From: an uncultured Gammaproteobacteria bacterium
GTDB lineage: Bacteria > Patescibacteriota > Microgenomatia > Levybacterales > UBA12049
Reading direction: 5' to 3'
DNA: 64,000 nt
NCBI GenBank assembly: GCA_964490105.1
Contig: CAZAZU010000001.1
Location: forward strand, 434,361-498,360
Shown here: piece by piece, positions 11,958-40,945 of the stretch
Numbering within the stretch: position 1 is the first letter of the stretch
Layout of the letters: each line of letters starts with the position of its first letter
Position numbers and translations under genes: made by a program
Notes under the pieces: model-generated
Database searches by the model: none
The model's input: only the letters and a program-made list of their open reading frames with translations
Told to the model about the DNA's origin: nothing

Positions 11958-12808
11958 TTAGATAACAGATATTTTATGAATGAAATCGGAAATCTAAGGG
12001 AGGAAAAAAATGAAAACACAAACCCCTGCCATGAATCCATAAACCCCTTATGTCTTATAAATGTTAACAAAAACCAATAAATTGGCTTTATTATCAAGTA
12101 ATTAAAGGCCGTGAGGGGATTTTTGGATAATTTTTGTTCTCTGAATTGCTTAGCCATAAGGGAAGTATATCTGCTATTTCTCTTTAAGTATTTAGAAAAA
12201 GTTGGAGAATCATAGTGGAGTAGATTTTCTTTTAACCAACCGACTCTTCCGGAAACGTCATACTGCTCATGCACATCCATCTGAGGGAGTCTGGCCTTAT
12301 TTTTTCTAAATAATCTTATAACTCCATCTGGATATACTCCTCCATATTTTAGAAATCTTCCAAGAAAATAATTAGACCTTGCTATAAAAAAAGCGTTATA
12401 TTCGCCAGTCTCCTCACCGATTTGACCATCTCTTGCTTTTAATATGTCTTGATGCCTTCTGAATAACTCAGGGATATTCTTTTCATATTCCCCTATTTCC
12501 TCATTTGACATCTTTATAACTTTTTCAATTTCATCTGAAAGTTTTTTACTTACGACCTCATCTGCGTCTAATTGAAGCACCCAGTCACCTGATGAAGCGT
12601 CAATTGCTTTCTGTTTATTAATATGAAAAATTGGAGGATTTGTTGTGACTATTATCTTTGCGTTAAATTTTGCGGCAATCTCTACGGTCCTGTCCGTTGA
12701 TGACCCATCGACGATCACAATCTCATCCGCAATTTCTTTTATAGAATTTAAACATTTCTCAATGTTTTTTTCTTCTTTAAATGTCGCGATGGCTACTGAT
12801 AATTTCAT
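11954..12808 (-). CDS. GT2 glycosyltransferase
   Basis: LSVAIATFKEEKNIEKCL, IVIVDGSSTDRT and the LQLDADE DXD motif; same GT2 subfamily as 29424-30170 and 31081-31986. Confidence 0.85.
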   Translation of the reverse strand: MKLSVAIATFKEEKNIEKCLNSIKEIADEIVIVDGSSTDRTVEIAAKFNAKIIVTTNPPIFHINKQKAIDASSGDWVLQLDADEVVSKKLSDEIEKVIKMSNEEIGEYEKNIPELFRRHQDILKARDGQIGEETGEYNAFFIARSNYFLGRFLKYGGVYPDGVIRLFRKNKARLPQMDVHEQYDVSGRVGWLKENLLHYDSPTFSKYLKRNSRYTSLMAKQFREQKLSKNPLTAFNYLIIKPIYWFLLTFIRHKGFMDSWQGFVFSFFSSLRFPISFIKYLLSN

Positions 12809-14484
12809 TTATTAATCGGGATTTTACGCCTAAATAAGAATAGCACAGATATGACGATAACAGAAAATATAGAAACAACCTTTCCTACTCTTCTTACCCG
12901 TGTATCTTCAAATTTAAGCTCTATAGTGTGTTCTCCTTGGGGAACCTGGTATGTGATTACACCTCGCTGATTTGGATCTTGAAACTCTATGGGAGCTTTA
13001 TTACCGTCAATGTATAGATTCCATCCTGGGAAGTAGAATGTGTAGTCTACCATCTTTAGCGTGGTGTCTGCTTTTATTTTATAGACTCTGGATGAATTGT
13101 TTACTTTCTTATCTATAACTACTCCCGTTCCTTCAAGTATTTCTGTTTTTTCAGTTTTTACCGGATAATCTTCACTCTTCCCTGTCCAGATTGGGTTCAT
13201 AACGATTGCATGAAGATTAAGATTTGTGAATGAATAATAACTATCTGGAAATTTTACGTAATTTTTACCATAAATCTCTGGCATTCTTAATACACAAATT
13301 AAAATAATAAAACATAAAATTAATGCCCTGCTGTTTATCCTATCCAAAATCACTGCAGCAATTATAGGAGGCAAAAAAATCAGAACTGAGAGTAATCTCC
13401 AGGGGAATTGGATATTTCCCAAAAAATTAATATTTTCATATATCGGTTTTGAAAAAGAAGTAGTAAGAAAAATTATTCCAGCACTAGTAAGAATTGCGAA
13501 AACAAGCATGGAATTATTTTTTAATTTTATTTTTCTTACTTTAATTAATAGAACAAAAATTATTCCTAATAAAATGATTAGTGTTTCCAGTAAACCAAAG
13601 TTAACTACAAAACCTCTGGGTAAAATATTAATTTGAGTGAAGTAATACCATTTGGTGTCTATGTAATTTGATAATGATAAAAAATTTCCCGGAGTTAGGT
13701 GATTACTTGAAGTACCATAATAAAAATATTTTATTTCTAAAAAAAGTGGAAGTATAAAGTAACCCGATATTCCTAATCCTAGTAAAGAAATTATTGCCAA
13801 ACTTAATATCTCTCTTAATGCCTTAAATTTAAAAAGCTTATTTTCGTAAATTAAAAATAAAAAGTATGGACCAGCTAGAAACGAGCCAATTACTAACATA
13901 AATGGATGAGTTAGAGAAATTAATGCTATGGAAATTCCAACTAAAAAATATCCATAAATATTCTTTTTTTGAATTGCTAAATACATTCCTATTAAAAGTA
14001 AGGGCATAAATACCGCAGCGAAAAATTCAGGAAGTGCACCCCTAATATAAATATTTAAAATTCTGTATGTAGAAAGATGAAAAAGAAGCGCTGCTGATAA
14101 AGAAACAGTTTCAGTAAAATAAATTCTTAGAAAGAAATAGAAAAAAAAGAATGACAAGAAAAAACCTAAAAAAGCTACTAGATTAAATGCGATCACCGGA
14201 TCAGAAACAAAAAATTCAAAAAAGGCTGTAAGATAAGTAGTTAACTGATGCGCAATAACTCCAAGAGGTAGTCCGTAATTCGCAAATCCATCCACCCAAC
14301 TTACTGGAAATTCCCCGCCTGCAATAGTTTTATAAAATAAATTAGGAGTTAGTGTGTGGACAATTCCATCCATGTTTGAAGATCTAACTGGGGTTATGAA
14401 CCAATCAATAACAGTAAGAATTGAAACAAATAAAATTATAAACCCAGCAAATAAATCTAGCTTAAATTGCCTAATTAGTTTCAT
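12805..14484 (-). CDS. Polytopic membrane protein, family A
   Basis: 559 aa; NIYIRGALPE and QFPWRLLSV motifs. The C-terminal 103 aa are identical to those of 14471-16168. Confidence 0.55.
   Translation of the reverse strand: MKLIRQFKLDLFAGFIILFVSILTVIDWFITPVRSSNMDGIVHTLTPNLFYKTIAGGEFPVSWVDGFANYGLPLGVIAHQLTTYLTAFFEFFVSDPVIAFNLVAFLGFFLSFFFFYFFLRIYFTETVSLSAALLFHLSTYRILNIYIRGALPEFFAAVFMPLLLIGMYLAIQKKNIYGYFLVGISIALISLTHPFMLVIGSFLAGPYFLFLIYENKLFKFKALREILSLAIISLLGLGISGYFILPLFLEIKYFYYGTSSNHLTPGNFLSLSNYIDTKWYYFTQINILPRGFVVNFGLLETLIILLGIIFVLLIKVRKIKLKNNSMLVFAILTSAGIIFLTTSFSKPIYENINFLGNIQFPWRLLSVLIFLPPIIAAVILDRINSRALILCFIILICVLRMPEIYGKNYVKFPDSYYSFTNLNLHAIVMNPIWTGKSEDYPVKTEKTEILEGTGVVIDKKVNNSSRVYKIKADTTLKMVDYTFYFPGWNLYIDGNKAPIEFQDPNQRGVITYQVPQGEHTIELKFEDTRVRRVGKVVSIFSVIVISVLFLFRRKIPINK
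12892..13202. repeat. 311-bp direct repeat, copy 1 (310/311 identical to 14579-14889)
   Basis: Direct comparison of the nucleotide strings shows a single synonymous A/G difference; the repeat covers the C-terminal domain codons of two tandem paralogues. Confidence 0.9.
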
Positions 14485-16168
14485 TTTTTAATTTAAAAAT
14501 TTTAAATATTTTATTTCTAAAAACGAATAATAAAATAAATACTATTAGTGACGTTAAAGACAGAATTTTGGCATATTCTCTTACCCGTGTATCTTCAAAT
14601 TTAAGCTCTATGGTGTGTTCTCCTTGGGGAACCTGGTATGTGATTACACCTCGCTGATTTGGATCTTGAAACTCTATGGGAGCTTTATTACCGTCAATGT
14701 ATAGATTCCATCCTGGGAAGTAGAATGTGTAGTCTACCATCTTTAGCGTGGTGTCTGCTTTTATTTTATAGACTCTGGATGAATTGTTTACTTTCTTATC
14801 TATAACTACTCCCGTTCCTTCAAGTATTTCTGTTTTTTCAGTTTTTACCGGATAATCTTCACTCTTCCCTGTCCAGATTGGGTTCATAAGAACTGAATGT
14901 GGATTATAAATCGATGAGTAATAAATTTCCGTTGGATATTTAATATAATTTTTCCCGTAAAGCTGTGGGAACTGAAGAACAATAATTAAAGCTACAAAAA
15001 TAAAAATAAAAATATTTTTATTTAATTTAGTAAGAAAAGCTGCATAAATAATGGGTGGGATAAAAATAAATGCTGACAAAATTCTCCAAGGAAATTGAAT
15101 ATTACTTAAAATATTTATTTTTTCATAAAAAATATTTGAAAAAGGTGAGATGAAAAAAAGAATTAATATAGATATTAATACCCCAAATTCCAAAATTCCA
15201 AAAGCCCTATCTTTCTTAATCCATTTAAACAAAATTAACCCTATACCAATTAATATTGATGCTGCTTCAATTATTCCTGGAAAAATGATATGACCTCTTG
15301 GAAATATTTCTGAATTTGTAAAATATTTCCAATCAAATTTTAAATAATCTGCTATTCCTAAAAATGAATTTGGCGTTAAATGATTTCCAATTCCATAATA
15401 AAAATATTTTATTTCTAAATTTAGAGGCAATAAATAATAGCTGGCAAGTCCTATTCCTAAAATTGAAAATATTCCAACAAAAATGATATCTTTAATTTGA
15501 TTAATAGAAATTAAACCTTTGAATTCTTTCTTGTCCTGAATTAATAGAAAAAATAAGTATGGCAAATATATAAATGAATAAATCAAAAGCATCATCGGAT
15601 GATTTAATGCCAGGAGAAACAACGAAAATGATGTGATGAAAAGTCCGATTATTTTTCTTTTCTTAATAAATAAATATAGCCCGATTAAAATTAATGGTAG
15701 AAAAGTGGCGGCAAATATTTCCGGCATGGCGCCTCTTATATAAAAGTTTATTATTTTATAAGATGTTAATGTATATAAAACTGTTGAAGCAAAAGAAGGC
15801 AAAGATCTAAAATACAATCGTAATAAACCGTAAAAAGTCAAAGAAGATAGACTTATTCCAAAAAATGAGATTAGCTTATATGCATTTTCTGGACTGAAAC
15901 CAGTGAAAATAAAAGCTGCTCCAAGATAATTTGTTAACTGATGAGCAACAAGCCCCATAGGAAGTCCATAATTCCCTATTCCATTATTCCAAACCACCGG
16001 AAAATCCCCGCCTTTTAGAGCTAGAAAAAATTGCGCCATATTGGTAATATGATATGGAGCATCAAAAGAGGCTAAGCGCGCTGAAGTTAAAAATAAGTCA
16101 AATACGAAAAAAACTGATAGAATAATAATGGCGACTGAACCAAAAATATCGGCTCTTGATAACCTCAC
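14471..16168 (-). CDS. Polytopic membrane protein, family A
   Basis: 565 aa; NFYIRGAMPE and QFPWRILSA motifs; apparent GTG start. Confidence 0.55.
   Translation of the reverse strand: MRLSRADIFGSVAIIILSVFFVFDLFLTSARLASFDAPYHITNMAQFFLALKGGDFPVVWNNGIGNYGLPMGLVAHQLTNYLGAAFIFTGFSPENAYKLISFFGISLSSLTFYGLLRLYFRSLPSFASTVLYTLTSYKIINFYIRGAMPEIFAATFLPLILIGLYLFIKKRKIIGLFITSFSLFLLALNHPMMLLIYSFIYLPYLFFLLIQDKKEFKGLISINQIKDIIFVGIFSILGIGLASYYLLPLNLEIKYFYYGIGNHLTPNSFLGIADYLKFDWKYFTNSEIFPRGHIIFPGIIEAASILIGIGLILFKWIKKDRAFGILEFGVLISILILFFISPFSNIFYEKINILSNIQFPWRILSAFIFIPPIIYAAFLTKLNKNIFIFIFVALIIVLQFPQLYGKNYIKYPTEIYYSSIYNPHSVLMNPIWTGKSEDYPVKTEKTEILEGTGVVIDKKVNNSSRVYKIKADTTLKMVDYTFYFPGWNLYIDGNKAPIEFQDPNQRGVITYQVPQGEHTIELKFEDTRVREYAKILSLTSLIVFILLFVFRNKIFKIFKLKNETN
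14579..14889. repeat. 311-bp direct repeat, copy 2
   Basis: Identical to 12892-13202 except for one transition. Confidence 0.9.
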
Positions 16169-16187
16169 AAGGTTATTATAGAAAGAA

Positions 16188-22257: not shown

Positions 22258-22263
22258 AAAGAA

Positions 22264-24890: not shown

Positions 24891-25816
24891 GAGGTTAATT
24901 TACCTAAAACTTCATTATCTGAAATAACAAACTGCTTTCTATGCTTAGATCTTAAATTTAATACTTTACGCAACATAAAAAGTGCATCAATAAATCCCAG
25001 TACTAATGCCTTGTCCCCTCTTATTCCATTTACTAAGTGGTAAGGAAGCCAAATAAGATGGTGATTGATTTTTCTAGGGTCGGCATTTTTCCAAACAAAA
25101 ATAAATTGATTTCTATATGCAATTCTTTTTACTTGATTTGGTGTGTATTTGCTTTTAATAGCCCCCTTTTCATGCTCATGTCGAACTACGCTTTTCCCCT
25201 CAAACAGTGTCTTAAAGCCCGCCCTTTGGGCCCTATACGAAATATCTATATCCTCCCAGTAAAATGGGTCATACACTTCATCAAGTCCCCCTAACTTATC
25301 CCAAATTTTCCTGCTGAAAGCTCCGCTTCCTCCGCTTATCCAAAGGGTGTTTGTTTTTTCAAGATCTCCAGCTCTATGCATCAAAAAACCTTTTTCCCAT
25401 TTTCCTATCCCCCTTCCTCTTAAAACAATTTTTCCTTCTTCAACGCTTTCATTCAAACATCCAACGGCAAAAACTGAATCATCAGAAAAATGTTCAATTA
25501 ATGGTTTTAAAAATGAATTATTAGCGATTACATCAGTATTTAATAAAACTATAATTTCTCCGCTGGATGCATTAACACCCTTATTTACATTAGTCGAAAA
25601 TCCCTTATTCTTATCGCTTTTTACTAATTTTAAGCTTTTATTTTCTTTTATAAATTCTTCGATTACCTGGATGGAGCCATCTTCTGAGCAATCATCAGCT
25701 ATAACAACTTCGATTTTATTATCGCTAAAATTATCGACTGCTTTTAACAATACTGGAAGATTTTTTTTGAGAATTTCCTCCCCATTATAATTTGGAACTA
25801 CAATGCTTATTTTCAT
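24887..25816 (-). CDS. GT2 glycosyltransferase
   Basis: ISIVVPNYNGEEIL, VIADDCSEDGS and LLNTDV. Confidence 0.85.
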   Translation of the reverse strand: MKISIVVPNYNGEEILKKNLPVLLKAVDNFSDNKIEVVIADDCSEDGSIQVIEEFIKENKSLKLVKSDKNKGFSTNVNKGVNASSGEIIVLLNTDVIANNSFLKPLIEHFSDDSVFAVGCLNESVEEGKIVLRGRGIGKWEKGFLMHRAGDLEKTNTLWISGGSGAFSRKIWDKLGGLDEVYDPFYWEDIDISYRAQRAGFKTLFEGKSVVRHEHEKGAIKSKYTPNQVKRIAYRNQFIFVWKNADPRKINHHLIWLPYHLVNGIRGDKALVLGFIDALFMLRKVLNLRSKHRKQFVISDNEVLGKLTS

Positions 25817-28071
25817 AATATGTTTTTATAAAAAGTGATCACTTGTTTACCACCAGGAATAAATATGCCTCGAAAATTATAATTAGTCCTAATTATCATA
25901 CCCTCTGAATCGTATCCTTCTATTTTAACATGCCAACCTGGATAATATGAATCAGATAGCACTAAAAATCCTGAGCCTTTGGTTTCTATATTAGTCTCCA
26001 CTACAATTTTATTATCAGTGTAACTTAGAGTCTTTACAGACCCATCAGAAAGATTGTCGCTTGGGCCAAATTCTTCTTCAACTATTGCAGTATTAGAAGG
26101 ATCAAAAAGAGGGTCAAACATTAACTTTATAGCCTCCTCTTTACTCGACGCGCTAATTACATTCTGTACCAAAAAAGCACGTGGCAAAACATTTTTATTT
26201 TCATAAACCTTAGTAGTCCCTTCTTCAAAAACCTTAACAAAGCCATCTTCATTTAAGTCGTCCAAACTTAAAACATATTTAACGCCAAGCAAATCAATTA
26301 GATTTCCTGAAAAATTTTCAATCCTAACGATCCTATTAAATCCATACGGCGGCTCTATATTTGGCCCATTTCTGTTAATAGCAGAAATTAGCTCGGCATA
26401 TCGATTTAAGAAAAGTGGATCATAACCTTCAACTGTCTGGATTCTATAAACTGAAGAAAAATTCGGAGGAAGAATTCTAGCGTCCGTTGTCGCAATTCTA
26501 TGATTTCCAATATTTTGAGAAATAAAATCTAAAGTTTTTGTATTCGGAAATAAATATTCTGGTTTTGAAAATGTATTAAACTTCCAAGAAAATCTGAAGA
26601 GATCTATAACAGTTAAGAGAATAATTAAACAAAGAATATATCTCTTAAATTCTTTTCTGGATTTAATAAATAAAAATAATAAAATTGCAGATGCACCAAA
26701 AACAATTGACGGAAATATTAAATTCCTCTTTGATACTAGTAAATTTTCTTGTTTTATCCCAAACTGATTTCCAATTTGAATAAAAATAAATATTCCCCCA
26801 AGAATTAGTGCAATAGATGTTAGCGGAATAATTAATTCTTTTATCTTTTCTTTTTTTATTAAATAATTAAGCCCAAGTGCTGCAAGAATTGATAATGAAA
26901 AGTTTACTAAAAAAATTAATCTAGTTGGCTGGGCTGAGGAGATAAAAGGAATTTCCAAAATGAATGGTAACCTGGAAATAAAATTAGGCAAAGTAAATAA
27001 AAGTGAGACAAAAAACAGACCACCAAAAAAATAAGTCTTCTTATCTCTTCTAAAAATTAGAGCTAAAATTACAAGAATAAGCGGAATTATTCCAAGATAT
27101 GCTGTCAGCTCTCCGTAATTCCATACCCCCCAATAATTTAAAGTTGTGGGATTTCCAAAAAAATCAGGTACCAAAAATTGAACTAAATTTTGCCAAGGCA
27201 AAAACCATCCTTCTTTTTGCCATAGTATTTGGTCCAAACTTCTTGCTGAAAGAGATATAAGTTTAAAGGTCGGAATTAGTTGAACTGAAGTAATTAAAAG
27301 AGTAATAAACCAGGTTATTAAAAAAACAATTCCAACTTTTTTATTTTTTTTACTCTGCCATATTCGAATAAGCAGATAAACAGAAGAGACTAATGACAGA
27401 TAGAAAAAGGTTTGAAGATGACCTGCAAAAAATGATGAAATACTTGAAAAAATAAGAATCCCCGACCAAGCAGATATTTTTTTAATATTTTTAGAAATTA
27501 TAATTTTATCAATTGATAATAAAATTAAAGGCAGCCATAAACCTGTATGAAGTATATTTCCCCATTCAAGCCATGTTGTAAAAAATCCTGAAAAAGAAAA
27601 TACAACTGAACCTAATAGACTGGAATAAATATCAAGCTTTAAGCTCCTTAGATATAGAAACAGAAAAATCCCAGCTAGCAATGGCTGGAGTATAATAAAA
27701 AAAGACCAGGAATAATTAAATGGCAAGATTAAAAATAATATGTTTAAAGGGTAAAAAACAGCAGACTGGAAATTTGCTAAAAGTGGGGTACCGGAAAATG
27801 AATACGGATTCCACATTGGAAGCTCTCTTTTTTTCAAACTTTCTATGGATAAATCTTTCCAAGGGTATTGCTGTCTAACGGGATCGGTAATTAGAAAGTT
27901 CTTATATGGAATCCCATTCGAGTAATCTTTAGCATACAAATCCCTATATGGATGATAAAGACCAATTATGGTGTCAGATGGGATCGGAAGAAATCCTTTT
28001 GCAAAAAATTGCCAAAAAAAGACAAATACAAAAAAGATAATTACTAAATAAGGAATTATTCCCCTAATCAT
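25813..28071 (-). CDS. YfhO-like large GT-C membrane protein
   Basis: 752 aa with more than 12 TM segments. The C-terminal domain carries the SDSYYPGWHVKIEG motif also found at the C-termini of family A proteins. Confidence 0.5.
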   Translation of the reverse strand: MIRGIIPYLVIIFFVFVFFWQFFAKGFLPIPSDTIIGLYHPYRDLYAKDYSNGIPYKNFLITDPVRQQYPWKDLSIESLKKRELPMWNPYSFSGTPLLANFQSAVFYPLNILFLILPFNYSWSFFIILQPLLAGIFLFLYLRSLKLDIYSSLLGSVVFSFSGFFTTWLEWGNILHTGLWLPLILLSIDKIIISKNIKKISAWSGILIFSSISSFFAGHLQTFFYLSLVSSVYLLIRIWQSKKNKKVGIVFLITWFITLLITSVQLIPTFKLISLSARSLDQILWQKEGWFLPWQNLVQFLVPDFFGNPTTLNYWGVWNYGELTAYLGIIPLILVILALIFRRDKKTYFFGGLFFVSLLFTLPNFISRLPFILEIPFISSAQPTRLIFLVNFSLSILAALGLNYLIKKEKIKELIIPLTSIALILGGIFIFIQIGNQFGIKQENLLVSKRNLIFPSIVFGASAILLFLFIKSRKEFKRYILCLIILLTVIDLFRFSWKFNTFSKPEYLFPNTKTLDFISQNIGNHRIATTDARILPPNFSSVYRIQTVEGYDPLFLNRYAELISAINRNGPNIEPPYGFNRIVRIENFSGNLIDLLGVKYVLSLDDLNEDGFVKVFEEGTTKVYENKNVLPRAFLVQNVISASSKEEAIKLMFDPLFDPSNTAIVEEEFGPSDNLSDGSVKTLSYTDNKIVVETNIETKGSGFLVLSDSYYPGWHVKIEGYDSEGMIIRTNYNFRGIFIPGGKQVITFYKNIL

Positions 28072-31081: not shown

Positions 31082-31986
31082 TAAATTTTGCCTTTTATTT
31101 TGTGGAAATATTTAGCAGCAATACTTTTTGATTCATCTGTCTTAATTTTTGAAAACCAATATCTTAAATCTTTACCAAATTTTCCGAGTTCTCCTTCAGT
31201 ACTTCTTAGAACTTCCTTTTCGTCAAATTTTTTAAATCCTTTTTTCTCCCAAACAATTGCCAGAACAATTAAGTGCGAAGAGGCCATTAAAAGCGAAAGA
31301 AATAATCCATGAATTCCATCCTTATAACCATGTCTTGCAAAATATCTACTTAAAAATTCTTTAGTTGGCGTACTAATTAAATCACCCGGAGTCAAAGCAT
31401 AATTTTTATTTATCAAATTATTTGCTTCATTTTGCGCATAATTTATCATATTTTTTTGAACAAACTGAATTATCGTTTCATAGTTATAATGAAGCATATG
31501 CTCTTTTAAGTAATCTGTTTCACCCTCTACCTGTATTCCCTCATGAACATGGCTATTTTTATATTCCCCTTTATTTTTTCTAAAAAGCCTTAGCTGGTGA
31601 TCTGGATACCAACCTGTGTATTCGATTTGTTTCCCAAAAATAATATTTTTTCTTGGAATAAAATATCCATTTTTTAAATTATTTTTTTTCAATAGTTCTT
31701 CAATCTCTCTCTGAAGTTCAGGAGTAACGATTTCATCTGCGTCAATTGACAGAGCCCAATCATTTTTAGCTTTTTTAAAACCTGCGTTTTTCTGAATATC
31801 AATTAGAAGAGGATCATTCGGTTGAGTTATTATGGATGTAGCATATTTTTTTGCAATATCAATTGTCTTGTCAGTAGATGAATTATTTATAACTATAATT
31901 TCATCGGCAAACATAACTGACTTAAGACAGTTTTCAATCTTATTTTCCTCATTAAATACTGAAATCACTACAGTTAGTTTTTGCAT
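31081..31986 (-). CDS. GT2 glycosyltransferase
   Basis: LTVVISVFNEENKI, IIVINNSSTDKT and SIDADEIV. Confidence 0.85.
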   Translation of the reverse strand: MQKLTVVISVFNEENKIENCLKSVMFADEIIVINNSSTDKTIDIAKKYATSIITQPNDPLLIDIQKNAGFKKAKNDWALSIDADEIVTPELQREIEELLKKNNLKNGYFIPRKNIIFGKQIEYTGWYPDHQLRLFRKNKGEYKNSHVHEGIQVEGETDYLKEHMLHYNYETIIQFVQKNMINYAQNEANNLINKNYALTPGDLISTPTKEFLSRYFARHGYKDGIHGLFLSLLMASSHLIVLAIVWEKKGFKKFDEKEVLRSTEGELGKFGKDLRYWFSKIKTDESKSIAAKYFHKIKGKI

Positions 31987-33428
31987 TAATGATAAAGATT
32001 TTTTATATCAGATATTATTTGTTTTCCTGATAATAAATAAATATTAGATATGTAAATTACCCCTCCTGAAATTATAACAAAGAAAAGAGTTAAAAGATTT
32101 TCAATTAATAAATCTGCAAGTATAAATGTACCTAATGCCATAATTATTGCAGCAATCGCGGGTTTGTAAACACTTTTAATAAAATTAAAATCTACTACTT
32201 TTTTAACCAGATAAATCGTAATGAATATTGTTAAAGTAACTACGAATGACGCAATAGCGACTCCATTAAAGCCCCAGAGATAAATAAATAGAGGTGTTAT
32301 GCTCCAGGTCATGAAAGTCCATAAAACCATTAGCTTTAATGTAGTTTTTACTCTGCCAGTTGCATCAAGCACATTTACAAGAACTGAGGACATCGAGGAA
32401 ACTATCGCATTAAGAGAGAAGAAAATAAGACTTAATAACGCTGGCTCCCATTTATTAGCCCACCCTGGAATATACATCATCATGTATGGTGAAACGATAA
32501 TTAGACCAACCAATAAAGGAAATAAGATAAGAGTTGTAAAAAAGAGTGACTTCTCAATTGCAGTTCTTAAAAAAACTTTATTGTCTTGAATTCTTGAGTA
32601 AGAAGAAAATGTAACTTTTGTAACACTATCAACAATATAACGGTAAACGAAAAATGCAATTCTTTGCGCAAATCCAATGTAACCAATTTGAGCGAAAGAT
32701 AAAAACTTAGTCAGGATTACTGTCAAGAAATCATCTTTAATTGTCGCAAGAATATTTTTTGCCTGGAACTGTACTCCAAATTTTAAATTACTAATTGAAG
32801 CTCTGTAAATCCCTACCTTTGGTTTCCATGGTGAAATTAGATAATAAAGAGGAATCCCGACAAGACTAGAAACAAGAAATGCCCATGAGTAACTATCAAC
32901 ACCGAATTTATTTAGAACGAGTGCGATAAGAATAATATTAAAAATTATTGATTCCCCAATCTGAGGAATTACAAGTTTTCCAAAATTAATATTTCTCTCA
33001 AGCAGAATTGAGGGAATCATCTTGAAGGATGAAAGAAAAATGGTAAAGACCAAAACTAATAGAAGTCTTCCGCCCTCATCATTAAGACCGAAGAATGATT
33101 TTATCTGTCCGATGAAGATTAAAAAAACGAGAAATATTCCAAAAGTTACTAAAAACTGAATTGTAAAAACTGTGGCAATATCTTCTTTTTTTAAATCTTC
33201 TTTTTTTTGAATTAATGCAGCTCCTAACCCAAAGTCTGTAATAAAACTTATTACTCGCTGAATTGCAACTACTGCAGTGTATATTCCCAGTTCTCTCGCA
33301 GATAAAATTACAGAGATCGTTAGGAAAGCTACAAAATTAATTAACTGAAGAATAAGGCTTCTACTTGCCAGCGCAAAAATTCCGTGAACGGTTTTCTGAG
33401 AAACTTTTTTTATATCCAGTTTGTCCAT
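31986..33428 (-). CDS. Wzx-like flippase of the MOP/PST family (oligosaccharide-lipid translocase)
   Basis: 480 aa with about 12-14 TM helices; the N-terminal region LILQLINFVAFLTISVILSARELGIY is typical of polysaccharide biosynthesis proteins. Confidence 0.7.
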   Translation of the reverse strand: MDKLDIKKVSQKTVHGIFALASRSLILQLINFVAFLTISVILSARELGIYTAVVAIQRVISFITDFGLGAALIQKKEDLKKEDIATVFTIQFLVTFGIFLVFLIFIGQIKSFFGLNDEGGRLLLVLVFTIFLSSFKMIPSILLERNINFGKLVIPQIGESIIFNIILIALVLNKFGVDSYSWAFLVSSLVGIPLYYLISPWKPKVGIYRASISNLKFGVQFQAKNILATIKDDFLTVILTKFLSFAQIGYIGFAQRIAFFVYRYIVDSVTKVTFSSYSRIQDNKVFLRTAIEKSLFFTTLILFPLLVGLIIVSPYMMMYIPGWANKWEPALLSLIFFSLNAIVSSMSSVLVNVLDATGRVKTTLKLMVLWTFMTWSITPLFIYLWGFNGVAIASFVVTLTIFITIYLVKKVVDFNFIKSVYKPAIAAIIMALGTFILADLLIENLLTLFFVIISGGVIYISNIYLLSGKQIISDIKNLYH

Positions 33429-33434: not shown

Positions 33435-34163
33435 TTAGGGTTTTTGCTGCCAGGGTTTTGTAGAAAAAAGTCTCCACATCACTTTTATATCTCCCCAGAT
33501 AGTTGATACAAGTCTAACGGTTGACCCAGGGTTATCAACCCAATGAACTGGCTCTTCAAATATTTTATATCCGCTTTTTTCTCCGATAATTAATAATTCT
33601 CCGTCAAAAAACCAATCATTATCTTTAACCTTTGGTATAAGATCCCTAACTATCTTTTTAGTTACTCCTTTAAATCCGCACTGTGCATCAGTAAAATGCG
33701 TTCTAAACCAAAATTGAATAAAAAAGAAATTAAGAGTTCTTGACGTAATCTCTCTAAGCATTGTTCTTCCCTCCACTTTAGCGCCTTTTGCAAGCCGTGA
33801 GCCAATCGCTATGTCATATCCATTCTCAAGGGCTTTAAGGATGTTTGGAAGGTGCTTTAGATCAGTTGAAAGATCAAGATCCATGTACACACAATAGTCA
33901 GCTTCTGAACTACTCCATGCCCTCTTAACGGCCCTTCCTCTACCTTTCTCTTCTAGTCTAAAGAGTTGGATTCTTGGATTATTTTTAGATAAATTAGCAG
34001 CAATTATAGGCGTGTTATCGCTCGATGCATTATCAGCTATGGTTATTTTCCAATCGTACCCATTAAGGTTTTTGGAGCAATAATCCGCAAGCTTTTTTAC
34101 ATTTACTTCAAGCTCTTTTTCCTCATTATAAACCGGGATTGTAATTTCTACTGTAGGTTTCAT
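33435..34163 (-). CDS. GT2 polyprenyl-phosphate sugar synthase (DPM1/GtrB-like), short form
   Basis: ITIPVYNEEKEL, TIADNASSDNT and YMDLDLSTD. Confidence 0.82.
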   Translation of the reverse strand: MKPTVEITIPVYNEEKELEVNVKKLADYCSKNLNGYDWKITIADNASSDNTPIIAANLSKNNPRIQLFRLEEKGRGRAVKRAWSSSEADYCVYMDLDLSTDLKHLPNILKALENGYDIAIGSRLAKGAKVEGRTMLREITSRTLNFFFIQFWFRTHFTDAQCGFKGVTKKIVRDLIPKVKDNDWFFDGELLIIGEKSGYKIFEEPVHWVDNPGSTVRLVSTIWGDIKVMWRLFSTKPWQQKP

Positions 34164-35818
34164 TTTTGGTTACGCTTGGCATAAATTATACCAGCTACGA
34201 GGATTAAAACACCAGACAGAGTTAGCAAATTAGCTAATTTTTGAATCATAGTTTCTTCAAATTTACCTACTAATTCACTCTCCCCCTTTGGAACCTTAAC
34301 TATCACTCCTGTTTTAGATTCTAATGCTTCTACGCTTTCTCCATTAACATAATATTTCCATGACGGGAAATATGGAATGTGAATAGTCAATTCGTTTTCG
34401 ACATTTGATTTTATCTGAGCTGAAATCCTGTTTGTCTTGGTATTAAGATCCAAAACCTCAATATTTTCTCCGGTAATTTTTTCTTTAATTATTTCCTCAG
34501 GACTAACTGGCCTTAAAAATGATTTAGGCAAATACTCATCAGAAATTTTTGACGTGGTCCAATTTAAAGAATGTTTATTTGTATATTCTTCTGAGGTTTT
34601 TGTTAAATAACTTTGCGGAACAAATAATTTGGAGTATAAAATTATTGGCGACACAATGATCGAAACATAGACAAAAAGAAATAACAAATTATATTTTTTT
34701 AAATTTATTTTTGATAATGCATATACTACAGAACCTGCAAGAAATGATGAAAAGAAAGAGGCAGCTAAAAGAAACCTCCATGGGTATTGAAAATAATCCA
34801 TGTATGGAATTTTCCAAATTAAACTTGACTGACTCACCATTAAGAACATTACGCCCGTCAAGCAAATACCCACAATAAATATCACTATTGATTTAATTTT
34901 TTCTTTTTTGAATAAATAGACTCCTGCGATTATTGAGAATAGGGAAAATAAAATATGCAGCTTTCCAAGCCTAAAAGACAAACCATCAACGCAACCAGGA
35001 ATAGAGCCTCCAAACATCCAAGGACTATCCCAGAATTGCCTGACACAAACAAAATGATCCGCGTAATGCGCTTTTCCCCCAATTGTTGAAAGGACATTTG
35101 TATAGTTCATTTCAAGAAGTGTTGGGAGAAAATAAAATGACGCAATCAAGATACCAAGTACTGGAATTCCCAAAATGAGTACTCTTCTTTTTAATGTAAA
35201 CAAAATAAGTGCAGCTAATATTATGAACGGACTAATCATCATTGCAGTCAAATTATGAGATGCAATTATCCCAGTGTAAGATAAACTCCCAAGAATTATA
35301 AATAAGAAATTATTTGATTTGTAATACTTCCATAAAGAATAAAAAACTAAAGGAATAAAAAAATATGCATAAACTTCCCCTATGTCTCCCCTGACATAAA
35401 TATCTAGCGCATGGTATGGCGCATAAACATAAAAAGCGGCAGCAACTAATCCTCCGATCTTTCCCCAGAATTCTTTTGCCAATAAATACATAGCAAAAGC
35501 AGATCCAATTACTGCGACTGCAATCATTATTTTTGTAGCCGTTAATGCATCAAATCCTAAAAAATTAAAAAATGCGCCTATATAGTACGGTATCGGACCA
35601 TAAAAATTAAAAATAGGATATCCATATCCATAACCCAAATCAGGAACCCATCTCACTGGAAACATTCCATCAGTTAGTGCAACTTTCATCTCATGAACTC
35701 TCTGGATTTGAGTGTCGTCGTGAATATTAAAAAAACCAGATTTAAAAAGTGGAAGAACAGTTATAATACTTAGCATTAAAACAGTTAAGGCGGTTATTTT
35801 CTTTTTTAAAATTTCCAT
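34160..35818 (-). CDS. Polytopic membrane protein, family A
   Basis: 552 aa; HDDTQIQRVHE, DIYVRGDIGE, FQYPWRFL and C-terminal PYFPSWKYYVNG. Confidence 0.55.
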   Translation of the reverse strand: MEILKKKITALTVLMLSIITVLPLFKSGFFNIHDDTQIQRVHEMKVALTDGMFPVRWVPDLGYGYGYPIFNFYGPIPYYIGAFFNFLGFDALTATKIMIAVAVIGSAFAMYLLAKEFWGKIGGLVAAAFYVYAPYHALDIYVRGDIGEVYAYFFIPLVFYSLWKYYKSNNFLFIILGSLSYTGIIASHNLTAMMISPFIILAALILFTLKRRVLILGIPVLGILIASFYFLPTLLEMNYTNVLSTIGGKAHYADHFVCVRQFWDSPWMFGGSIPGCVDGLSFRLGKLHILFSLFSIIAGVYLFKKEKIKSIVIFIVGICLTGVMFLMVSQSSLIWKIPYMDYFQYPWRFLLAASFFSSFLAGSVVYALSKINLKKYNLLFLFVYVSIIVSPIILYSKLFVPQSYLTKTSEEYTNKHSLNWTTSKISDEYLPKSFLRPVSPEEIIKEKITGENIEVLDLNTKTNRISAQIKSNVENELTIHIPYFPSWKYYVNGESVEALESKTGVIVKVPKGESELVGKFEETMIQKLANLLTLSGVLILVAGIIYAKRNQK

Positions 35819-37446
35819 AATTTCTTAGCTCCTAATATTAATAGCGCAAATAAACTTACAACTGAAATTACATTACTTAGCATTCTAGTTGACGTCTCAC
35901 TAAATGATGCAGCAACAGTGTGATCTCCCGCAGGCAGTTCTAAATCCATAACTCCTCTAGTATTATTATAGTTTATTTTTTTTAGAGTGCCATTTACGCT
36001 AACTTTCCATCCAGGATAATATATTGTATTCATTCTAACAATTCCTTCCTGATTCAATTTAACTGCAAAAGTAATATTTTTGGAATTGAAAGAAATATTT
36101 TCTATGTATCCCGATCCTTTAATAATTTCAATTTTTTCTTTTGATCTTTCGAATGGAAATTCCTTAACCCAAAGCGGCATCAGTTCCTTCGAAGAAGTAG
36201 TAGTAGCATCATTTGTAAAATAAAATCCTTCTCCTCTATTTACATATTCTGATGGTTTTGAAAAAGGAATATAGAGAGCAAGAGCCATTAAAACTATTGC
36301 AAAAGATAAAATTTTAAAAAACCTAAAATTTGACAGACATCCCGCAAGCAGGGAAATAATTAAACCAATCTGAGATAAAACCACCCAAGGATAATTTATT
36401 TCTGAAAGAAGAGGAAGCTTCCAGACAAATTTCGATTCTTTAACAAGCAGAAATGTGAATATAAAAAATCCTAAAAATAAAACAATTACTAATGTTTCAT
36501 TTGATGTTCTTTTTAGTAAGTTTATTTTTCGTAGTAATAATGTTATGGAAATTAAACCCAATACAATAAGAAATGGCCAGCCAATTTGATATGTAAAAGG
36601 GCTGATTGGATCAGTCGGAGTTCCGTAACCCCATGGTGAATTTAAAAGTTGTTTTAAATTTACATAATATAAATTTCTATCAGCAATCGGGGTTTCTGAC
36701 AAAAGTATATTCGCCTTTTCTAAAAGCGCAGGTATCCAAAAAAATGCAGAAAGACCAAGACCTGAAATTAAAACAAAGAGATAATTTTTTAGAAGACTGA
36801 GATCATTCTTTTTAAAATTTCCGAGAAAAAATAATCCTAAAGTCAGCGTAAACAATATCGCCATAATATTATGAGAAGTAATTAAGATAGCGTAAGAAAA
36901 AGCTCCAACTAATTTAAATAAAATAGAATCTGGTTTTTTAATTAATGATGCAAAGGAATAAAGTACAATTGGAAAAAGCATAAATGCAAAACTTTCTCCA
37001 ATTGACCCTCTTACAAATAAATCAACTAGTCTGTACGGGAAATATAAATATAGAACAGAACTTATTATTCCCGCCCAATTATTTTCCCAAATCTTTCTGG
37101 AAGCCAAAAACATGAAAAAAGCAGATGTCGGGATTGTAATTGCAAACATTAATTTAACGGTATCCACAAATCCAATTCCCAACATGTGAATCGCAACTCC
37201 TAAATAGTACGGAAATGGATATGTAAAATTAAATAATGGATAACCATAACCGAAGTTCAAATTTCCACTATACCTTGCTGGTATCTGCATGTCCCGAAGC
37301 GTTCTGAACATATCTGAGAGTCTTACGACTGCCCACTCGCCATCATGGGTGGGAAAATATCCTGAGTGAATGTAAGGAATAAGAAGAGGGATAGAAATTA
37401 ATAAGGAAAAGATAAAAACTGGAAGATAAAATTTTACAAATCTCAC
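35806..37446 (-). CDS. Polytopic membrane protein, family A
   Basis: 546 aa; THDGEWAVVR, DLFVRGSIGE, INYPWVVLS and C-terminal YYPGWKVSVNG. Confidence 0.55.
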   Translation of the reverse strand: MRFVKFYLPVFIFSLLISIPLLIPYIHSGYFPTHDGEWAVVRLSDMFRTLRDMQIPARYSGNLNFGYGYPLFNFTYPFPYYLGVAIHMLGIGFVDTVKLMFAITIPTSAFFMFLASRKIWENNWAGIISSVLYLYFPYRLVDLFVRGSIGESFAFMLFPIVLYSFASLIKKPDSILFKLVGAFSYAILITSHNIMAILFTLTLGLFFLGNFKKNDLSLLKNYLFVLISGLGLSAFFWIPALLEKANILLSETPIADRNLYYVNLKQLLNSPWGYGTPTDPISPFTYQIGWPFLIVLGLISITLLLRKINLLKRTSNETLVIVLFLGFFIFTFLLVKESKFVWKLPLLSEINYPWVVLSQIGLIISLLAGCLSNFRFFKILSFAIVLMALALYIPFSKPSEYVNRGEGFYFTNDATTTSSKELMPLWVKEFPFERSKEKIEIIKGSGYIENISFNSKNITFAVKLNQEGIVRMNTIYYPGWKVSVNGTLKKINYNNTRGVMDLELPAGDHTVAASFSETSTRMLSNVISVVSLFALLILGAKKLWKF

Positions 37447-37448: not shown

Positions 37449-38990
37449 TTATTTTTGTTCAACTGAATAAACTGTGTAATATACACGATCATTCTTTTTA
37501 AACTCAGATATTTTTTTAAGCGGCCAGTCATCTGGCGCATCTCCTGCATACTCGCATGCGATGCAAGGCTGATAGAAGATAAAATATGTAGGCATTTTTT
37601 TTGCTGACTCTAAAACCTCAGCAGGTATTTCTTCAATAGGCCAATAACCTTTTATTATTACATTTGGATTATTTGCTAAATAAATTTCTAAAGCATATGG
37701 CATCAGACCGAAAGTTCCTTCTGTCCCTATAAATATTTTTTCATCTTTAGATTTATCTTCAAAAAACTTAACACTTTCCTTTACTCCGCCCCCCGCTGGC
37801 CAATCGCTAATATACTGCGCATTATCTGCACTAGCTATTGCTGCCTTAGAAGGATTGAATATAAAATCCATTGATACTTTTGCAGGGTAAAGTGTGAATA
37901 AAATGATTGCCAAAGCAGAAACCGCATAATAACTATTTAATTTTCTTTTACTTAAGTAATTATTTAGTAAATCAATAATTTGAGTAAGACCTACCGCTGC
38001 TAAAGGTAAAAGATAAAGACTCATGAAAAATATAAATCTAGGAAAAATTACTCTACCAAATAAAGCGAGAGCTATTAAAGGGAGCGCAAAGTAAGCTATG
38101 AGTAAAAGTTTTTCTTTTATAAATTTTTTGGATAAAAGCGAAACCAAAATTAAAATTAAATAAAATGGTGTGAGATAAGTAAAAAGCCATGTTAAAAGTC
38201 CTCTTAAATTTCCCAAAAATAAATTTATATTATCCATAATTGGAATACTGAATGGGTAATAAACAAAAATAGTATTTTTCTCTTTTATGATATGGAAAAA
38301 TGGAGAGAGTCTTAAGCTGTTATATAAAACCTCAGCAATTCCAATTGCTACAACCGCAAATAATCCCAACACAAATAATTTTTTTAATATTTTTTTCTGT
38401 TTAAAATTAAAAAGAATTAGCGTTAAGGGGAGAAGAATAATACTAAAGTTAGCGCTTGTCTTAGTGAGCATTCCTGCACCAAGTATAGCTCCTAAAATTA
38501 GGGCCACATCAAGCCTTAGTTTTCTGACTAAAAGAATTGAAAAATAAATTGCATAAATTGCGAAAGCCCCTACCAAACTGTCATAAAGAGCCAGGCGATC
38601 ATAAACTACTGCAAATGGATATGCCACATAAAGGATTGATGAGACAAATGCAGCTCTTTTGCTTTTAAATAATTCGTAGGTAAGTAACCATAATCCAATT
38701 AGAGAAAATAATCCGGCAACAACTGAAACAAGCCTCACAGCTACGATTGGGTCTTCAATAAGTCTTAAAAATATCATTCCAAACCAAATTAACATGGGTT
38801 GTTTTCCGTCAGTTAAAGAAATGAATCGCCAATTTGCATCTTGTGAAGCAATTTGTGCCCATCTTATGTAGAGAGCCTCATCTGTAAAAATTGGAAAGTT
38901 TCCAAGAATAATTAATCTTGAAACTAGAAAAGATATAAGAATTAGAAAACCTAAAAGAATTTCTTTTTTAAATTTTATAACTAAATTCAT
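37449..38990 (-). CDS. ArnT/PMT-like GT-C glycosyltransferase (divergent)
   Basis: GNFPIFTDEALYIRWAQ...DGKQPMLIW...AVRLVSVVAG. Confidence 0.7.
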   Translation of the reverse strand: MNLVIKFKKEILLGFLILISFLVSRLIILGNFPIFTDEALYIRWAQIASQDANWRFISLTDGKQPMLIWFGMIFLRLIEDPIVAVRLVSVVAGLFSLIGLWLLTYELFKSKRAAFVSSILYVAYPFAVVYDRLALYDSLVGAFAIYAIYFSILLVRKLRLDVALILGAILGAGMLTKTSANFSIILLPLTLILFNFKQKKILKKLFVLGLFAVVAIGIAEVLYNSLRLSPFFHIIKEKNTIFVYYPFSIPIMDNINLFLGNLRGLLTWLFTYLTPFYLILILVSLLSKKFIKEKLLLIAYFALPLIALALFGRVIFPRFIFFMSLYLLPLAAVGLTQIIDLLNNYLSKRKLNSYYAVSALAIILFTLYPAKVSMDFIFNPSKAAIASADNAQYISDWPAGGGVKESVKFFEDKSKDEKIFIGTEGTFGLMPYALEIYLANNPNVIIKGYWPIEEIPAEVLESAKKMPTYFIFYQPCIACEYAGDAPDDWPLKKISEFKKNDRVYYTVYSVEQK

Positions 38991-39014
38991 CTGTGTAAAT
39001 TATACTAGAAACCG

Positions 39015-40190
39015 CTATTCTTGTGCACCGATAGATTTAGGGAGCTTACCATAAACATAAACAAAAGCTATAAAAACTAACGGCGTTATAATAGTTAATG
39101 CGTTTCTAATTGGAACTCCGATTCCGTCCCAATTTCCAAAATAAAGTAGGACTGTATATCGAAACAATAATCCCAAAGACAAACCAATCGATAGGCTCAA
39201 AACATATTTATTTGGCTTAAGTAGTGCTACGAATGGAAGAACCCATATGAAATACCAGGGCTGAATTTCTATTTTAGATAGCGCATAACCTGATGCAATA
39301 AGCATAGAAATAATAGAAAGAATTATAAATTTATTATTATCTAGCTTCTCCTTAAAAGGAATAAAGCTTACGATTAAAGGCATCAATAATCCAATTGTAG
39401 GAATTTTTACCTGTGAAGAAATTATTACCAAAATAATTGCGAAGATTCTTTTTCTTAAAAAGTATAAATAAATTCCTGATAAAGCGAAAAAAACCATAAC
39501 AATGTCATGATGAGATGAAACTAGACTTTCAATGATTATCAGCGGGTTAAGTGCAAAAAATGTTGTGTTAAAAATAGCATGATCTGGATTTATTTTTTTA
39601 TTTATTTTGTAAATTAAAAATACCGATGCTAAGTAAAATCCTGTAATTAAAAACTTGAAAAGAAAAAAAGTTAGAAGAAAGATATTCATTCCAATAAATG
39701 AAACTGGAATCGTTAATCCTAGCCAAACAGGTCCATACGGATAGACTCTGTGCGTCCACCGCATAAAAGAAAGCATTGGATCCTCAGGATAGTCCATTGC
39801 TCGGTGAAAATATGGATTTTCGTGATAGAAAGTTACAATTTTTGCGTCGAAAATATAATTAAATAAATCATAAGAAAATGCATTATATGAAAATGAAAGA
39901 ATCGCAGCAGTAGAAACTATCAAAACAATCAAGTCTTTTATCTTTAAATCGTTTCTAATTGCTTTTCTTAAAAACCATACGTAGTAAGCAAACATTAAAA
40001 TTAATATTGAAATGAATAGAATCGTAGAAAGCGGCCGATTAAAATAACCTATATATTGAAAATTCTTTTGGATTGACTGCCAGATTGAAGCTTGAGAGAG
40101 CGTTAGGCTCAAGTCAATTTGAGTAAAGGAATAAAAAAAGAGCAGAACAATTACTAAAAAAAAGGAATATTTTCTGATCACCTCGATCAT
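39015..40190 (-). CDS. Polytopic membrane protein, family D (paralogue of 3517-4659)
   Basis: 391 aa; the shared motifs are listed under 3517-4659. Confidence 0.5.
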   Translation of the reverse strand: MIEVIRKYSFFLVIVLLFFYSFTQIDLSLTLSQASIWQSIQKNFQYIGYFNRPLSTILFISILILMFAYYVWFLRKAIRNDLKIKDLIVLIVSTAAILSFSYNAFSYDLFNYIFDAKIVTFYHENPYFHRAMDYPEDPMLSFMRWTHRVYPYGPVWLGLTIPVSFIGMNIFLLTFFLFKFLITGFYLASVFLIYKINKKINPDHAIFNTTFFALNPLIIIESLVSSHHDIVMVFFALSGIYLYFLRKRIFAIILVIISSQVKIPTIGLLMPLIVSFIPFKEKLDNNKFIILSIISMLIASGYALSKIEIQPWYFIWVLPFVALLKPNKYVLSLSIGLSLGLLFRYTVLLYFGNWDGIGVPIRNALTIITPLVFIAFVYVYGKLPKSIGAQE

Positions 40191-40945
40191 AGATTATATT
40201 TTCCTGAAAATTTATTTAATGTAATTTTTCCTAAATCAAAAATGCCATTTATAGAGTCTTTAATAGGACTTACTCTTCGAGACTCTACATAAAGCCATTC
40301 TACTGGAACTTCTTTAATCCTATACCCCATTTTATTTGCAAGGAATAAAAGCTCAACGTCAAAACCGGCTGTAACGTTTGATCCATGAATCTCTGAAAAG
40401 CCATTATGGAGCGTATTTATTTTCTTAAATAGCCTATCTGCAGCTTCTTCGGTAAACATTTTAAACCCACATTGAGTATCTTGAATCTCATAAATTCCCA
40501 CCATAGCTTTTCTAAGAATTATCATACTTCTAGACATCACACGCCTGGAAAAAGGCGAACCTTTTCTACTTCTGCTTCTAGAGCCGATCACAACATCATA
40601 GTTCTTTTCAAAAAAAGGCAAAAGCTTTTCTGCCTCCTCAATTGGCGTTGCCTGATCCATATCAGTAAAAAGACGAATTTCTCCTCTAGCCTCTAACATT
40701 CCTTTTGTAACAGCACCTTCTTTTCCGGAATGTGACCCTTTTATCAATCTAAAATTTTTGTTTTCTTTGGCATATCTCTCGGAAAATTCTGAAGATCCAT
40801 CGTCTGAACCATCATCAACAATAATTACTTCATATGTATATTTTTGACGAGTTAAATAATGATCTATTTTATCCAGTACACCTTTTCGAAGATTGGGCAT
40901 TTCATTATATGAGGGGATAACAACGGAGAGATAAACTTTATTCAC
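40187..40945 (-). CDS. GT2 polyprenyl-phosphate sugar synthase (DPM1/GtrB-like)
   Basis: LSVVIPSYNEMPNL, VIIVDDGSDDGS and LFTDMDQATP. It is the first gene of the long minus-strand run. Confidence 0.82.
   Translation of the reverse strand: MNKVYLSVVIPSYNEMPNLRKGVLDKIDHYLTRQKYTYEVIIVDDGSDDGSSEFSERYAKENKNFRLIKGSHSGKEGAVTKGMLEARGEIRLFTDMDQATPIEEAEKLLPFFEKNYDVVIGSRSRSRKGSPFSRRVMSRSMIILRKAMVGIYEIQDTQCGFKMFTEEAADRLFKKINTLHNGFSEIHGSNVTAGFDVELLFLANKMGYRIKEVPVEWLYVESRRVSPIKDSINGIFDLGKITLNKFSGKYNL

Follow-up and report, generated by a model that had tools for sequence, protein, structure and literature searches.

PF10131 membrane proteins of a Levybacterales glycosylation island as probable polyprenyl-phosphate-sugar-dependent GT-C glycosyltransferases

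We analysed a 64,000-nucleotide stretch (here called the window; positions 434,361 to 498,360 of contig CAZAZU010000001.1, assembly GCA_964490105.1) from a bacterium placed by GTDB in the Levybacterales of the Patescibacteriota, which carries five related genes for polytopic membrane proteins of about 550 amino acids (aa). These proteins, together termed family A and individually A1 (52-1710), A2 (12805-14484), A3 (14471-16168), A4 (34160-35818) and A5 (35806-37446), are likely to be glycosyltransferases of the GT-C type that depend on polyprenyl-phosphate sugars and act outside the membrane on a surface glycopolymer or on surface proteins. Judged by profile matches, family A belongs to the named Pfam family PF10131 (PTPS_related), a sister of YfhO and a member of the GT-C clan CL0111, listed with "function unknown" in a 2021 analysis (PMC7801869). 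Taken as a sequence finding, this annotation is correct at the family level but not surprising, since the kind is known, though uncharacterised. The evidence is computational and consists of homology, fold, conserved residues, predicted topology, gene context and synteny, from which we infer donor, acceptor, residue roles, enzymatic activity and heteromeric assembly of family A. Residue numbers follow A4 throughout, and coordinates of the main features are collected in Table 1.

Family assignment, fold and conserved residues

An earlier sequence-only reading of the window had described five paralogous open reading frames (ORFs) of about 550 aa. All five were recovered at their coordinates on the minus strand, with lengths of 546-565 aa, and all-against-all BLASTP over nearly the full length bore out their relationship. 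Identity among A1, A4 and A5 is 28-29% (E 1e-62 to 5e-67; 29% and E 1e-62 for A5 against A4), A2 and A3 share 54% (E 0), and the two groups match each other at 24-28% (E 1e-30 to 3e-46). By this similarity, which lies far above chance, A1-A5 are true paralogues; the same comparison revealed no further members among the window ORFs. The five gene calls are present verbatim, and nameless, in public collections. Neighbouring genes overlap by 13 bp for A5 and A4, by 14 bp for A3 and A2, and by 4 bp for A2 and the glycosyltransferase family 2 (GT2) gene downstream of it (11954-12808).

While the sequence-only reading had refrained from naming a family, Pfam scores and the domains precomputed on homologues now provide one. 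All five proteins match PF10131, with A1, A2 and A4 above the gathering threshold of 26.4 bits, and A5 and A3 are tied to the other paralogues by BLASTP (E up to 1e-30). The PF10131 domain is precomputed on nearly all 120 homologues among the matches listed. In contrast, the YfhO threshold (PF09586, 28.5 bits) is passed by A1 alone, with no YfhO match for A2-A5 at E up to 1, and the PMT_2 threshold (PF13231, 26.1 bits) is reached by none, A1 scoring 22.9 bits and A2-A5 giving no match. No NCBIfam family was found for any family A paralogue. Searches with a family A profile retrieved 7,959 cluster representatives at E <=1e-30 and 28,533 at E <=1e-3.

The four motifs noted earlier occur in the same order in all five proteins, in a looser form than first written. 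After the first transmembrane (TM) segment, the loop reads PTHDGEYH (A1), SNMDGIVH (A2), ASFDAPYH (A3), NIHDDTQI (A4) and PTHDGEWA (A5); because one Asp alone is invariant, the description of this loop as Asp-rich had to be dropped. The mid-protein box retains RG in all five and is better written [ILF][YF][VI]RGxxxE, with R, G and E invariant and more freedom in the first positions. The later loop carries [QN][FY]PW throughout, but the Arg that was thought to follow it is present in four paralogues only and replaced by Val in A5. Likewise, the C-terminal FPGW box is found in every paralogue as [FY]P[GS]W, with FPSW in A4. When the five paralogues were aligned with 48 homologues (53 sequences), D34, P68, R143, G144, E148, P156, H188, P232, E236, W267, G285, P346, W347, L350, P485, W487 and G512 proved invariant. 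In A4-type orthologues, R348 is retained in 78 of 82 sequences, and the long outer loop contains a nearly invariant Cys pair (C258/C276).

From the 53-sequence alignment, AlphaFold2 produced a model of A4 with a mean predicted local distance difference test score (pLDDT) of 92.6 and a predicted template-modelling score (pTM) of 0.92. Comparison of this model with the PDB by Foldseek agreed with the proposed GT-C fold: the best 32 matches were all GT-C enzymes (STT3, AglB, PglB, AftA, AftD, EmbA/B/C, ArnT, Pmt4 and ALG12), the top one with E 1.3e-5 and probability 1.0. Model helices and the positive-inside pattern predict 12 TM helices, within the range of 7-13 of the GT-C clan, and place both termini in the cytoplasm. 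The short loops predicted to be cytoplasmic are all rich in Lys and Arg (KKK, KRR, KKEKIK, KINLKKY, KRNQK), and the invariant polar residues all fall on the outer side of the predicted topology.

Profile-profile comparison of family A with the PMT_2 paralogues of the window gave a match from TM1 to about TM6 (probability 95.6%, E 1.3e-8), in which D34 lies opposite the Asp of the PMT_2 DE motif and R143 opposite the invariant Arg of the PMT_2 'FSR' box. The window PMT_2 profile in turn aligns its own DE motif with the PDEG segment of ArnT (5ezm), which we take to be the catalytic D55 region. These two alignments therefore place the conserved Asp in the predicted extracytoplasmic loop 1, in answer to the question of whether it maps there. 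An acidic catalytic loop, as the sequence-only reading had supposed, is consistent with the position of the invariant D34 just after TM1 and its alignment to the DE motif; family A carries the acidic residue of GT-C loop 1 as a single Asp, with no DxD.

The extracytoplasmic beta-sandwich suspected at the C-terminus is likewise present in the A4 model as a domain of nine strands followed by a TM helix. Its [FY]PGW-type box recurs, as had been noticed, in the YfhO-like protein of the window (25813-28071), where it reads YYPGWHVKIEG, and hhalign indicated that the surrounding domain is homologous (C-termini: probability 87%, E 3.8e-6). The TM regions of family A and of this protein are also related (E 5e-5). 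Modelled alone, the beta-sandwich had a pLDDT of 82 and weakly resembled accessory beta-sandwich domains of glycoside hydrolases (best E 6.6e-3).

In A2 and A3, this domain is covered by a 277-bp block of 100% nucleotide identity (12926..13202 and 14613..14889, both minus strand), the longest exact match between the two genes. Codon-window identity is 1.0 over about residues 428-520, as against 0.44-0.72 nucleotide identity over the N-terminal ~415 residues, and the identical block next to a diverged N-terminal part therefore suggests that gene conversion, or a swap of the domain, took place recently. An assembly artefact was considered and judged unlikely, because a mis-join in a repeat gives chimeric genes rather than two complete tandem genes with diverged flanks. 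A metagenome scan with the A2/A3 alignment found genes of this type mostly as single copies elsewhere; A2 alone as query returned no matches. The A2 and A3 products are recorded from one of three source collections, and the repeat perhaps breaks other assemblies.

The conserved A5-A4 operon and its proposed function

A4 is followed by a short GT2 gene (33435-34163) whose product has no TM segment evident by inspection of its sequence. Among PDB sequences it best matches the dolichol-phosphate-mannose synthase (DPMS) of P. furiosus (5mlz, E 1.5e-18) and ArnC, and its best NCBIfam relatives are AglJ, dolichyl-phosphate hexose transferase, PgfS and ArnC, all under curated cutoffs. The gene order GT2, MptA-like, PMT_2, A5, A4, DPMS-like GT2, Wzx and three GT2 is found in about 80 species. 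Indeed, the succession of family A partner, A4 orthologue, GT2, Wzx and two or three further GT2 genes is nearly invariant in 80 loci of different species, with GT2, MptA-like, PMT_2 and sometimes YfhO genes upstream of the partner; the upstream order of GT2, MptA-like and PMT_2 genes is the same in L001, L003-L006 and many other loci. A family A partner adjoins the A4 orthologue in 61/71 species loci, the GT2 gene adjoins it in 73/76, and Wzx follows the GT2 gene in 75/75. With 37-83% identity, the A4 orthologues of the 80 loci resemble A4 much more than do its paralogues in the same genome, so the split between A4 and A5 is old. Named homologues derive from Candidatus Levybacteria/Levyibacteriota, Roizmanbacteria, Microgenomates and "Patescibacteria group" assemblies. 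Among the records of loci L003-L081, many bear the title 'uncultured Gammaproteobacteria bacterium' and one (L057) is called 'Pacearchaeota archaeon'; this looks like the result of wrong labels or faulty binning and not like a real taxonomic spread.

Of 67 partners of A4, 25 are of the A5 type, in which T, V or I takes the place of the Arg of PWR; this is the one subgroup that lacks the Arg. A second type, found in other species, reads FPFR, has a shorter outer loop without W267 and retains Y[KQT]RGSxGE in the alignment. The idea of an inactive, degenerate partner was rejected, because the Asp and the RG...E box are present in every partner; the apparent loss of motifs in about half of them came from over-strict patterns. 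Four homologues are fusions: P0121 joins an A5-like and an A4-like part in operon order (1116 aa) with a seamless TM-to-TM junction, P0122 two family A copies (1093 aa), P0244 a GT2 and a family A protein (826 aa), and P0250 a family A protein and another polytopic membrane domain (954 aa). They may be Rosetta-stone hints of physical coupling, or possibly gene-calling errors. The 13-bp overlap of A5 and A4 suggests translational coupling.

In Gram-positive bacteria, multi-component systems employ a GT-A enzyme to make a polyprenyl-phosphate sugar, a GtrA- or Wzx-type flippase to move it and a GT-C enzyme to transfer the sugar outside (PMC8035078), one variant combining a soluble GT-A with Wzx (PMC8035078, PMC11127046). 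The set of GT-A, flippase (GtrA or Wzx) and GT-C is established for YfhO and PMT_2 enzymes (PMC8035078, PMC5836110). Because the gene arrangement around A4 resembles these systems, we propose that family A proteins are polyprenyl-phosphate-sugar-dependent GT-C enzymes. A cytoplasmic DPMS-type short GT2 (33435-34163 and its three paralogues) would load a sugar onto polyprenyl phosphate, the lipid-linked sugar would be flipped to the outer leaflet, and a family A protein would transfer it to an acceptor at the cell surface. A lipid-phosphate-linked donor would fit the DPMS/ArnC-like GT2 gene that appears to be translationally coupled to A4. D34 may act as the loop-1 Asp does in ArnT and PMT enzymes, R143, E148, H188, E236 and R348 of the PW-R box may form a donor-phosphate or metal site, and the beta-sandwich may assist in holding the acceptor; the paralogues would differ in the sugar or linkage that they add. 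The most likely acceptor is the glycopolymer of the same conserved operon, which encodes Wzx, several GT2/GT1 enzymes and PMT_2, MptA-like and YfhO-type GT-Cs.

Several observations weigh against this assignment. A5 and A3 remain under the PF10131 gathering threshold, and the matched part of the 621-position profile is limited to positions 1 to about 316. A profile search of PDB sequences found no solved structure related by sequence (best match an aldehyde dehydrogenase, E 0.18), and the Foldseek template-modelling scores of about 0.44, with large root-mean-square deviations, mean that the similarity to GT-C structures does not go beyond the fold. A5 and its orthologues lack R348, so the role proposed for it is not universal, and no carbohydrate-binding module gave a significant match to the lone beta-sandwich model, which leaves carbohydrate binding a guess. 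The NCBIfam scores of the short GT2s lie far below every equivalog cutoff. Neither a GtrA-type flippase nor an initiating phosphoglycosyltransferase was found in the window, and Wzx may flip an acceptor precursor rather than the donor. Limited literature searches returned no characterised PF10131 member or functional study, and equally limited ones on GT-Cs in candidate phyla radiation (CPR) bacteria or Patescibacteria gave nothing functional.

Since YfhO-family enzymes serve both glycopolymer and protein glycosylation (PMC5836110, PMC12041528) and the gene set is pgf-like, protein O-glycosylation is a serious alternative, which we consider possible rather than probable. Family A would then attach sugars to Ser/Thr-rich stretches of proteins at the surface or in the membrane, the pair acting sequentially like PgfM1/PgfM2 of S. 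mutans together with PgfS. PgtC2 and PgfM1, both of the YfhO family, glycosylate disordered regions rich in Ser and Thr (PMC12041528), two GT-C paralogues beside one short GT2 mirror the pgf operon, and protein-glycosylating enzymes are the best fold matches of A4. The short GT2s match the PgfS model (E 1.6e-11 to 6.5e-18) and the A1 C-terminus weakly matches the PgfM2 model (E 0.053), but both stay far under curated cutoffs. Moreover, no protein in or near the window could be singled out as a target, and Wzx together with at least five cytoplasmic GT2/GT1 genes in the operon is typical of polysaccharide assembly. Another reading is an oligosaccharyltransferase- or ligase-like enzyme that would transfer a preassembled, Wzx-flipped oligosaccharide en bloc from a polyprenyl-diphosphate carrier onto protein or polymer. 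In its favour, STT3 or AglB make up all of the top ten Foldseek matches, and directly downstream lie Wzx and several genes for cytoplasmic GT2s by which a lipid-linked oligosaccharide could be assembled. We regard this as unlikely, because a WWDYG-type motif (WWD or WxDxG) is absent from all five paralogues and the STT3 Pfam model (PF02516) is unmatched at E up to 1. The external domain also comprises just ~75 residues of beta-sandwich, the families closest by profile are YfhO and PMT_2, whose characterised members use monophosphate-linked single sugars, and A4 appears coupled to a DPMS-like GT2.

It is very improbable that family A proteins are transporters or structural membrane proteins whose motifs are conserved for folding or transport. 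Limited literature searches yielded no biochemical data on PF10131 that would speak against a non-enzymatic role, yet the first transporter among the fold matches of A4 appears at rank 47 (AmpG, probability 0.14), behind the 32 GT-C structures, and Pfam and NCBIfam offered no significant transporter match beyond a weak one to MmpA (E 0.022). No transporter family explained the motifs; had one done so, it would by the terms of the sequence-only reading have spoken against that reading. The invariant residues carry polar or charged side chains and gather at the outer face of the membrane, as they do in GT-C active sites, and family A is consistently coupled to GT2 genes, with one GT2 fusion on record.

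Within the preferred assignment as polyprenyl-phosphate-sugar-dependent GT-C enzymes, a more specific idea is that A5 and A4 form an obligate heteromer, like Pmt1-Pmt2 or EmbA-EmbB, which with the GT2 and Wzx would build a lineage-defining surface glycopolymer of these ultra-small bacteria. This draws on the adjacency in 61/71 loci, from Levybacteria-like genomes and at least one Gottesmanbacteria genome, on the 13-bp overlap and on the P0121 fusion, which shows the same order in other lineages, and we hold it to be rather doubtful. As part of it, an acceptor-binding beta-sandwich would be exchanged between paralogues by gene conversion, as in A2/A3. PF10131 is a very large GT-C family for which our limited searches revealed neither a characterised member nor a solved structure. 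Its first biochemical study would find a well-defined target in the conserved A5-A4-GT2-Wzx core and could also reveal the cell-surface composition of CPR bacteria; it would provide a function for a family of about 8,000-28,000 sequence clusters and could justify a new CAZy glycosyltransferase family, unless already classified there.

The surrounding glycosylation island

The window has a G+C content of about 32%, and its positions 1-41,000 form a dense glycosylation island that includes the five family A genes. Roughly 15 of its ~37 genes encode GT-C-type or unassigned polytopic membrane proteins. Since A4 lies on a 784,859-bp contig of a genome that is probably below 1 Mb, the island represents a large investment in extracytoplasmic glycosylation. 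Besides family A, it contains six PMT_2-type GT-Cs (at 7538, 10581, 17317, 18996, 20599 and 37449), one YfhO-type GT-C (25813), an MptA/B-like GT-C (39015-40190), the Wzx-type flippase, nine GT2s and one GT1. A paralogue of the MptA-like protein is probably encoded at 3517-4659, based on a shared YD[IL]FNYIF motif judged by eye. Three large polytopic proteins (1682, 9072, 22962) have no family assignment, and single-sequence hhalign of 1682, 3517, 9072, 22962 and 39015 against family A and PMT_2 gave nothing significant; for 39015, the MptA-like assignment comes from NCBIfam.

The GT2s of the island fall into three classes. Members of the short class (6216, 22264, 33435, 40187) are closest to the Pyrococcus DPMS and ArnC among PDB sequences and, in NCBIfam, also near AglJ, dolichyl-phosphate hexose transferase, PgfS and PpgS. 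All of these enzymes make polyprenyl-phosphate sugars, although the matches score under the curated cutoffs.

Other genes of the window touch on sugar and lipid supply. An NAD-dependent sugar epimerase/dehydratase gene lies inside the island (5179-6153) and a dTDP-4-dehydrorhamnose 3,5-epimerase (RmlC) gene at 48638-49159; together they hint at rhamnose or another modified sugar among the sugars used. Near the island, a complete-looking mevalonate pathway cluster (55483-63848) comprises genes for HMG-CoA reductase, an HMG-CoA synthase-like protein, thiolase, three GHMP kinases/decarboxylases, a HAD hydrolase and a methyltransferase; polyprenyl carriers may draw their isoprenoid from this cluster. 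Two small membrane proteins of ~195 aa (6951-7550 and 16781-17359) share an R[TA]FHNK motif and are each encoded beside a PMT_2 gene; neither has a Pfam match, and for the one at 16781-17359 profile comparison gave a weak match (probability 33%) to the C-terminal part of the PMT_2 alignment. The window further contains a bacterial type IB topoisomerase gene (52559-53617; Topoisom_I and Top1B_N_bact), two Peptidase_S51 genes about 9 kb apart (41095-41859 and 51155-51778) and an adjacent pair of Ser_hydrolase genes (50052-51162).

Table 1 Coordinates of family A genes, selected parts of A4 and associated genes in the window
Feature	Position	Strand	Length	Remarks
A1	52..1710	-	552 aa	PF10131 47.8 bits; YfhO 44.9 bits; BLASTP against A5 E 4.5e-67
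A2	12805..14484	-	559 aa	PF10131 44.2 bits; 54% identity with A3
A3	14471..16168	-	565 aa	PF10131 14.1 bits; BLASTP against A2 E 0
A4	34160..35818	-	552 aa	Downstream member of conserved tandem pair; PF10131 45.4 bits
A5	35806..37446	-	546 aa	Upstream member of tandem pair; PF10131 25.4 bits, just below cutoff
D34 codon of A4	35717..35719	-		Outer end of TM1; invariant in 53 sequences; candidate catalytic residue
R143-G-D-I-G-E148 of A4 (YVRGxxxE box)	35375..35392	-		Second outer loop; R143, G144 and E148 invariant
P346-W347-R348 of A4 (PWR box)	34775..34783	-		Start of TM10; P and W invariant; R at least 90% conserved
Extracytoplasmic beta-sandwich of A4 (predicted)	34259..34477	-		Residues 448-520; nine strands, pLDDT >90
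FPSW box of A4	34358-34369	-		Inside beta-sandwich
C-terminal TM anchor of A4 (predicted)	34166..34249	-		Helix 524-551 in model; hydrophobic, then KRNQK
Short GT2	33435..34163	-	242 aa	4-bp overlap with A4; candidate polyprenyl-phosphate sugar synthase
MOP/Wzx-type flippase	31986..33428	-		Polysacc_synt_3 E 7e-47; MOP flippase and O-glycosylation Wzx models
PMT_2 GT-C	37449-38990	-		Pfam; upstream part of conserved operon
MptA/B-like GT-C	39015-40190	-		MptA-like E 2.8e-13; upstream part of conserved operon
Short GT2	40187-40945	-		Pfam; upstream end of conserved operon (37449..40945)
YfhO-family GT-C	25813..28071	-	752 aa	PF09586 95 bits; shares FPGW beta-sandwich

Comparison with known systems

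Compared with PF10131 itself, whose gathering threshold A1, A2 and A4 pass, family A has a second half (TM8-11, beta-sandwich and terminal TM segment) that the Pfam model leaves undescribed; the family name points to pterin synthase and is uninformative on function. With STT3, PglB and AglB (GT66), the similarity is confined to the fold, and family A shows neither their WWDYG motif nor a match to the STT3 model. Its relation to PMT_2, ArnT and PMT enzymes (GT83, GT39) is closer and comprises the profile homology from TM1 to about TM6, with D34 on DE and R143 on the conserved Arg, and the same predicted donor class. However, plain sequence search is blind to this relation, the sole PMT_2 match being that of A1 under the cutoff. 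The C-terminal half of family A is unlike these enzymes, and the Lys of the 'YKP' box of the window PMT_2 proteins aligns to a Gly in A4.

At the level of gene sets, the operon resembles the GacI/GacJ/GacK/GacL-type system of S. pyogenes (PMC8035078), in that a GT-A, a Wzx-type flippase and a GT-C are encoded together. It differs from it in that the GT-C is a tandem pair of PF10131 proteins, whereas the Gac GT-C belongs to PMT_2, and in that no GacJ-like small membrane partner was identified.

As representatives of YfhO we considered the proteins of B. subtilis, S. aureus and Listeria as well as streptococcal PgtC2, PgfM1 and PgfM2. Family A proteins are shorter (~550 aa compared to 750-880 aa), the large extracytoplasmic region of YfhO being cut down to the beta-sandwich, and four of the five paralogues stay under the YfhO threshold. 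The YVRGxxxE and PWR patterns are unmatched in the YfhO-like protein of the window, in which hhalign places QPTR opposite QYPWR, and this protein ends right after the beta-sandwich, while family A adds a C-terminal TM anchor. Nevertheless, family A and YfhO share the GT-C membrane core with an Asp right after TM1, homology in the TM region and a homologous C-terminal beta-sandwich with an [FY]PGW box. In both, a GT2 that makes, or in family A would make, a polyprenyl-phosphate sugar is paired genetically with the GT-C, and two paralogues are encoded per operon, as in pgf (PMC8035078, PMC12041528).

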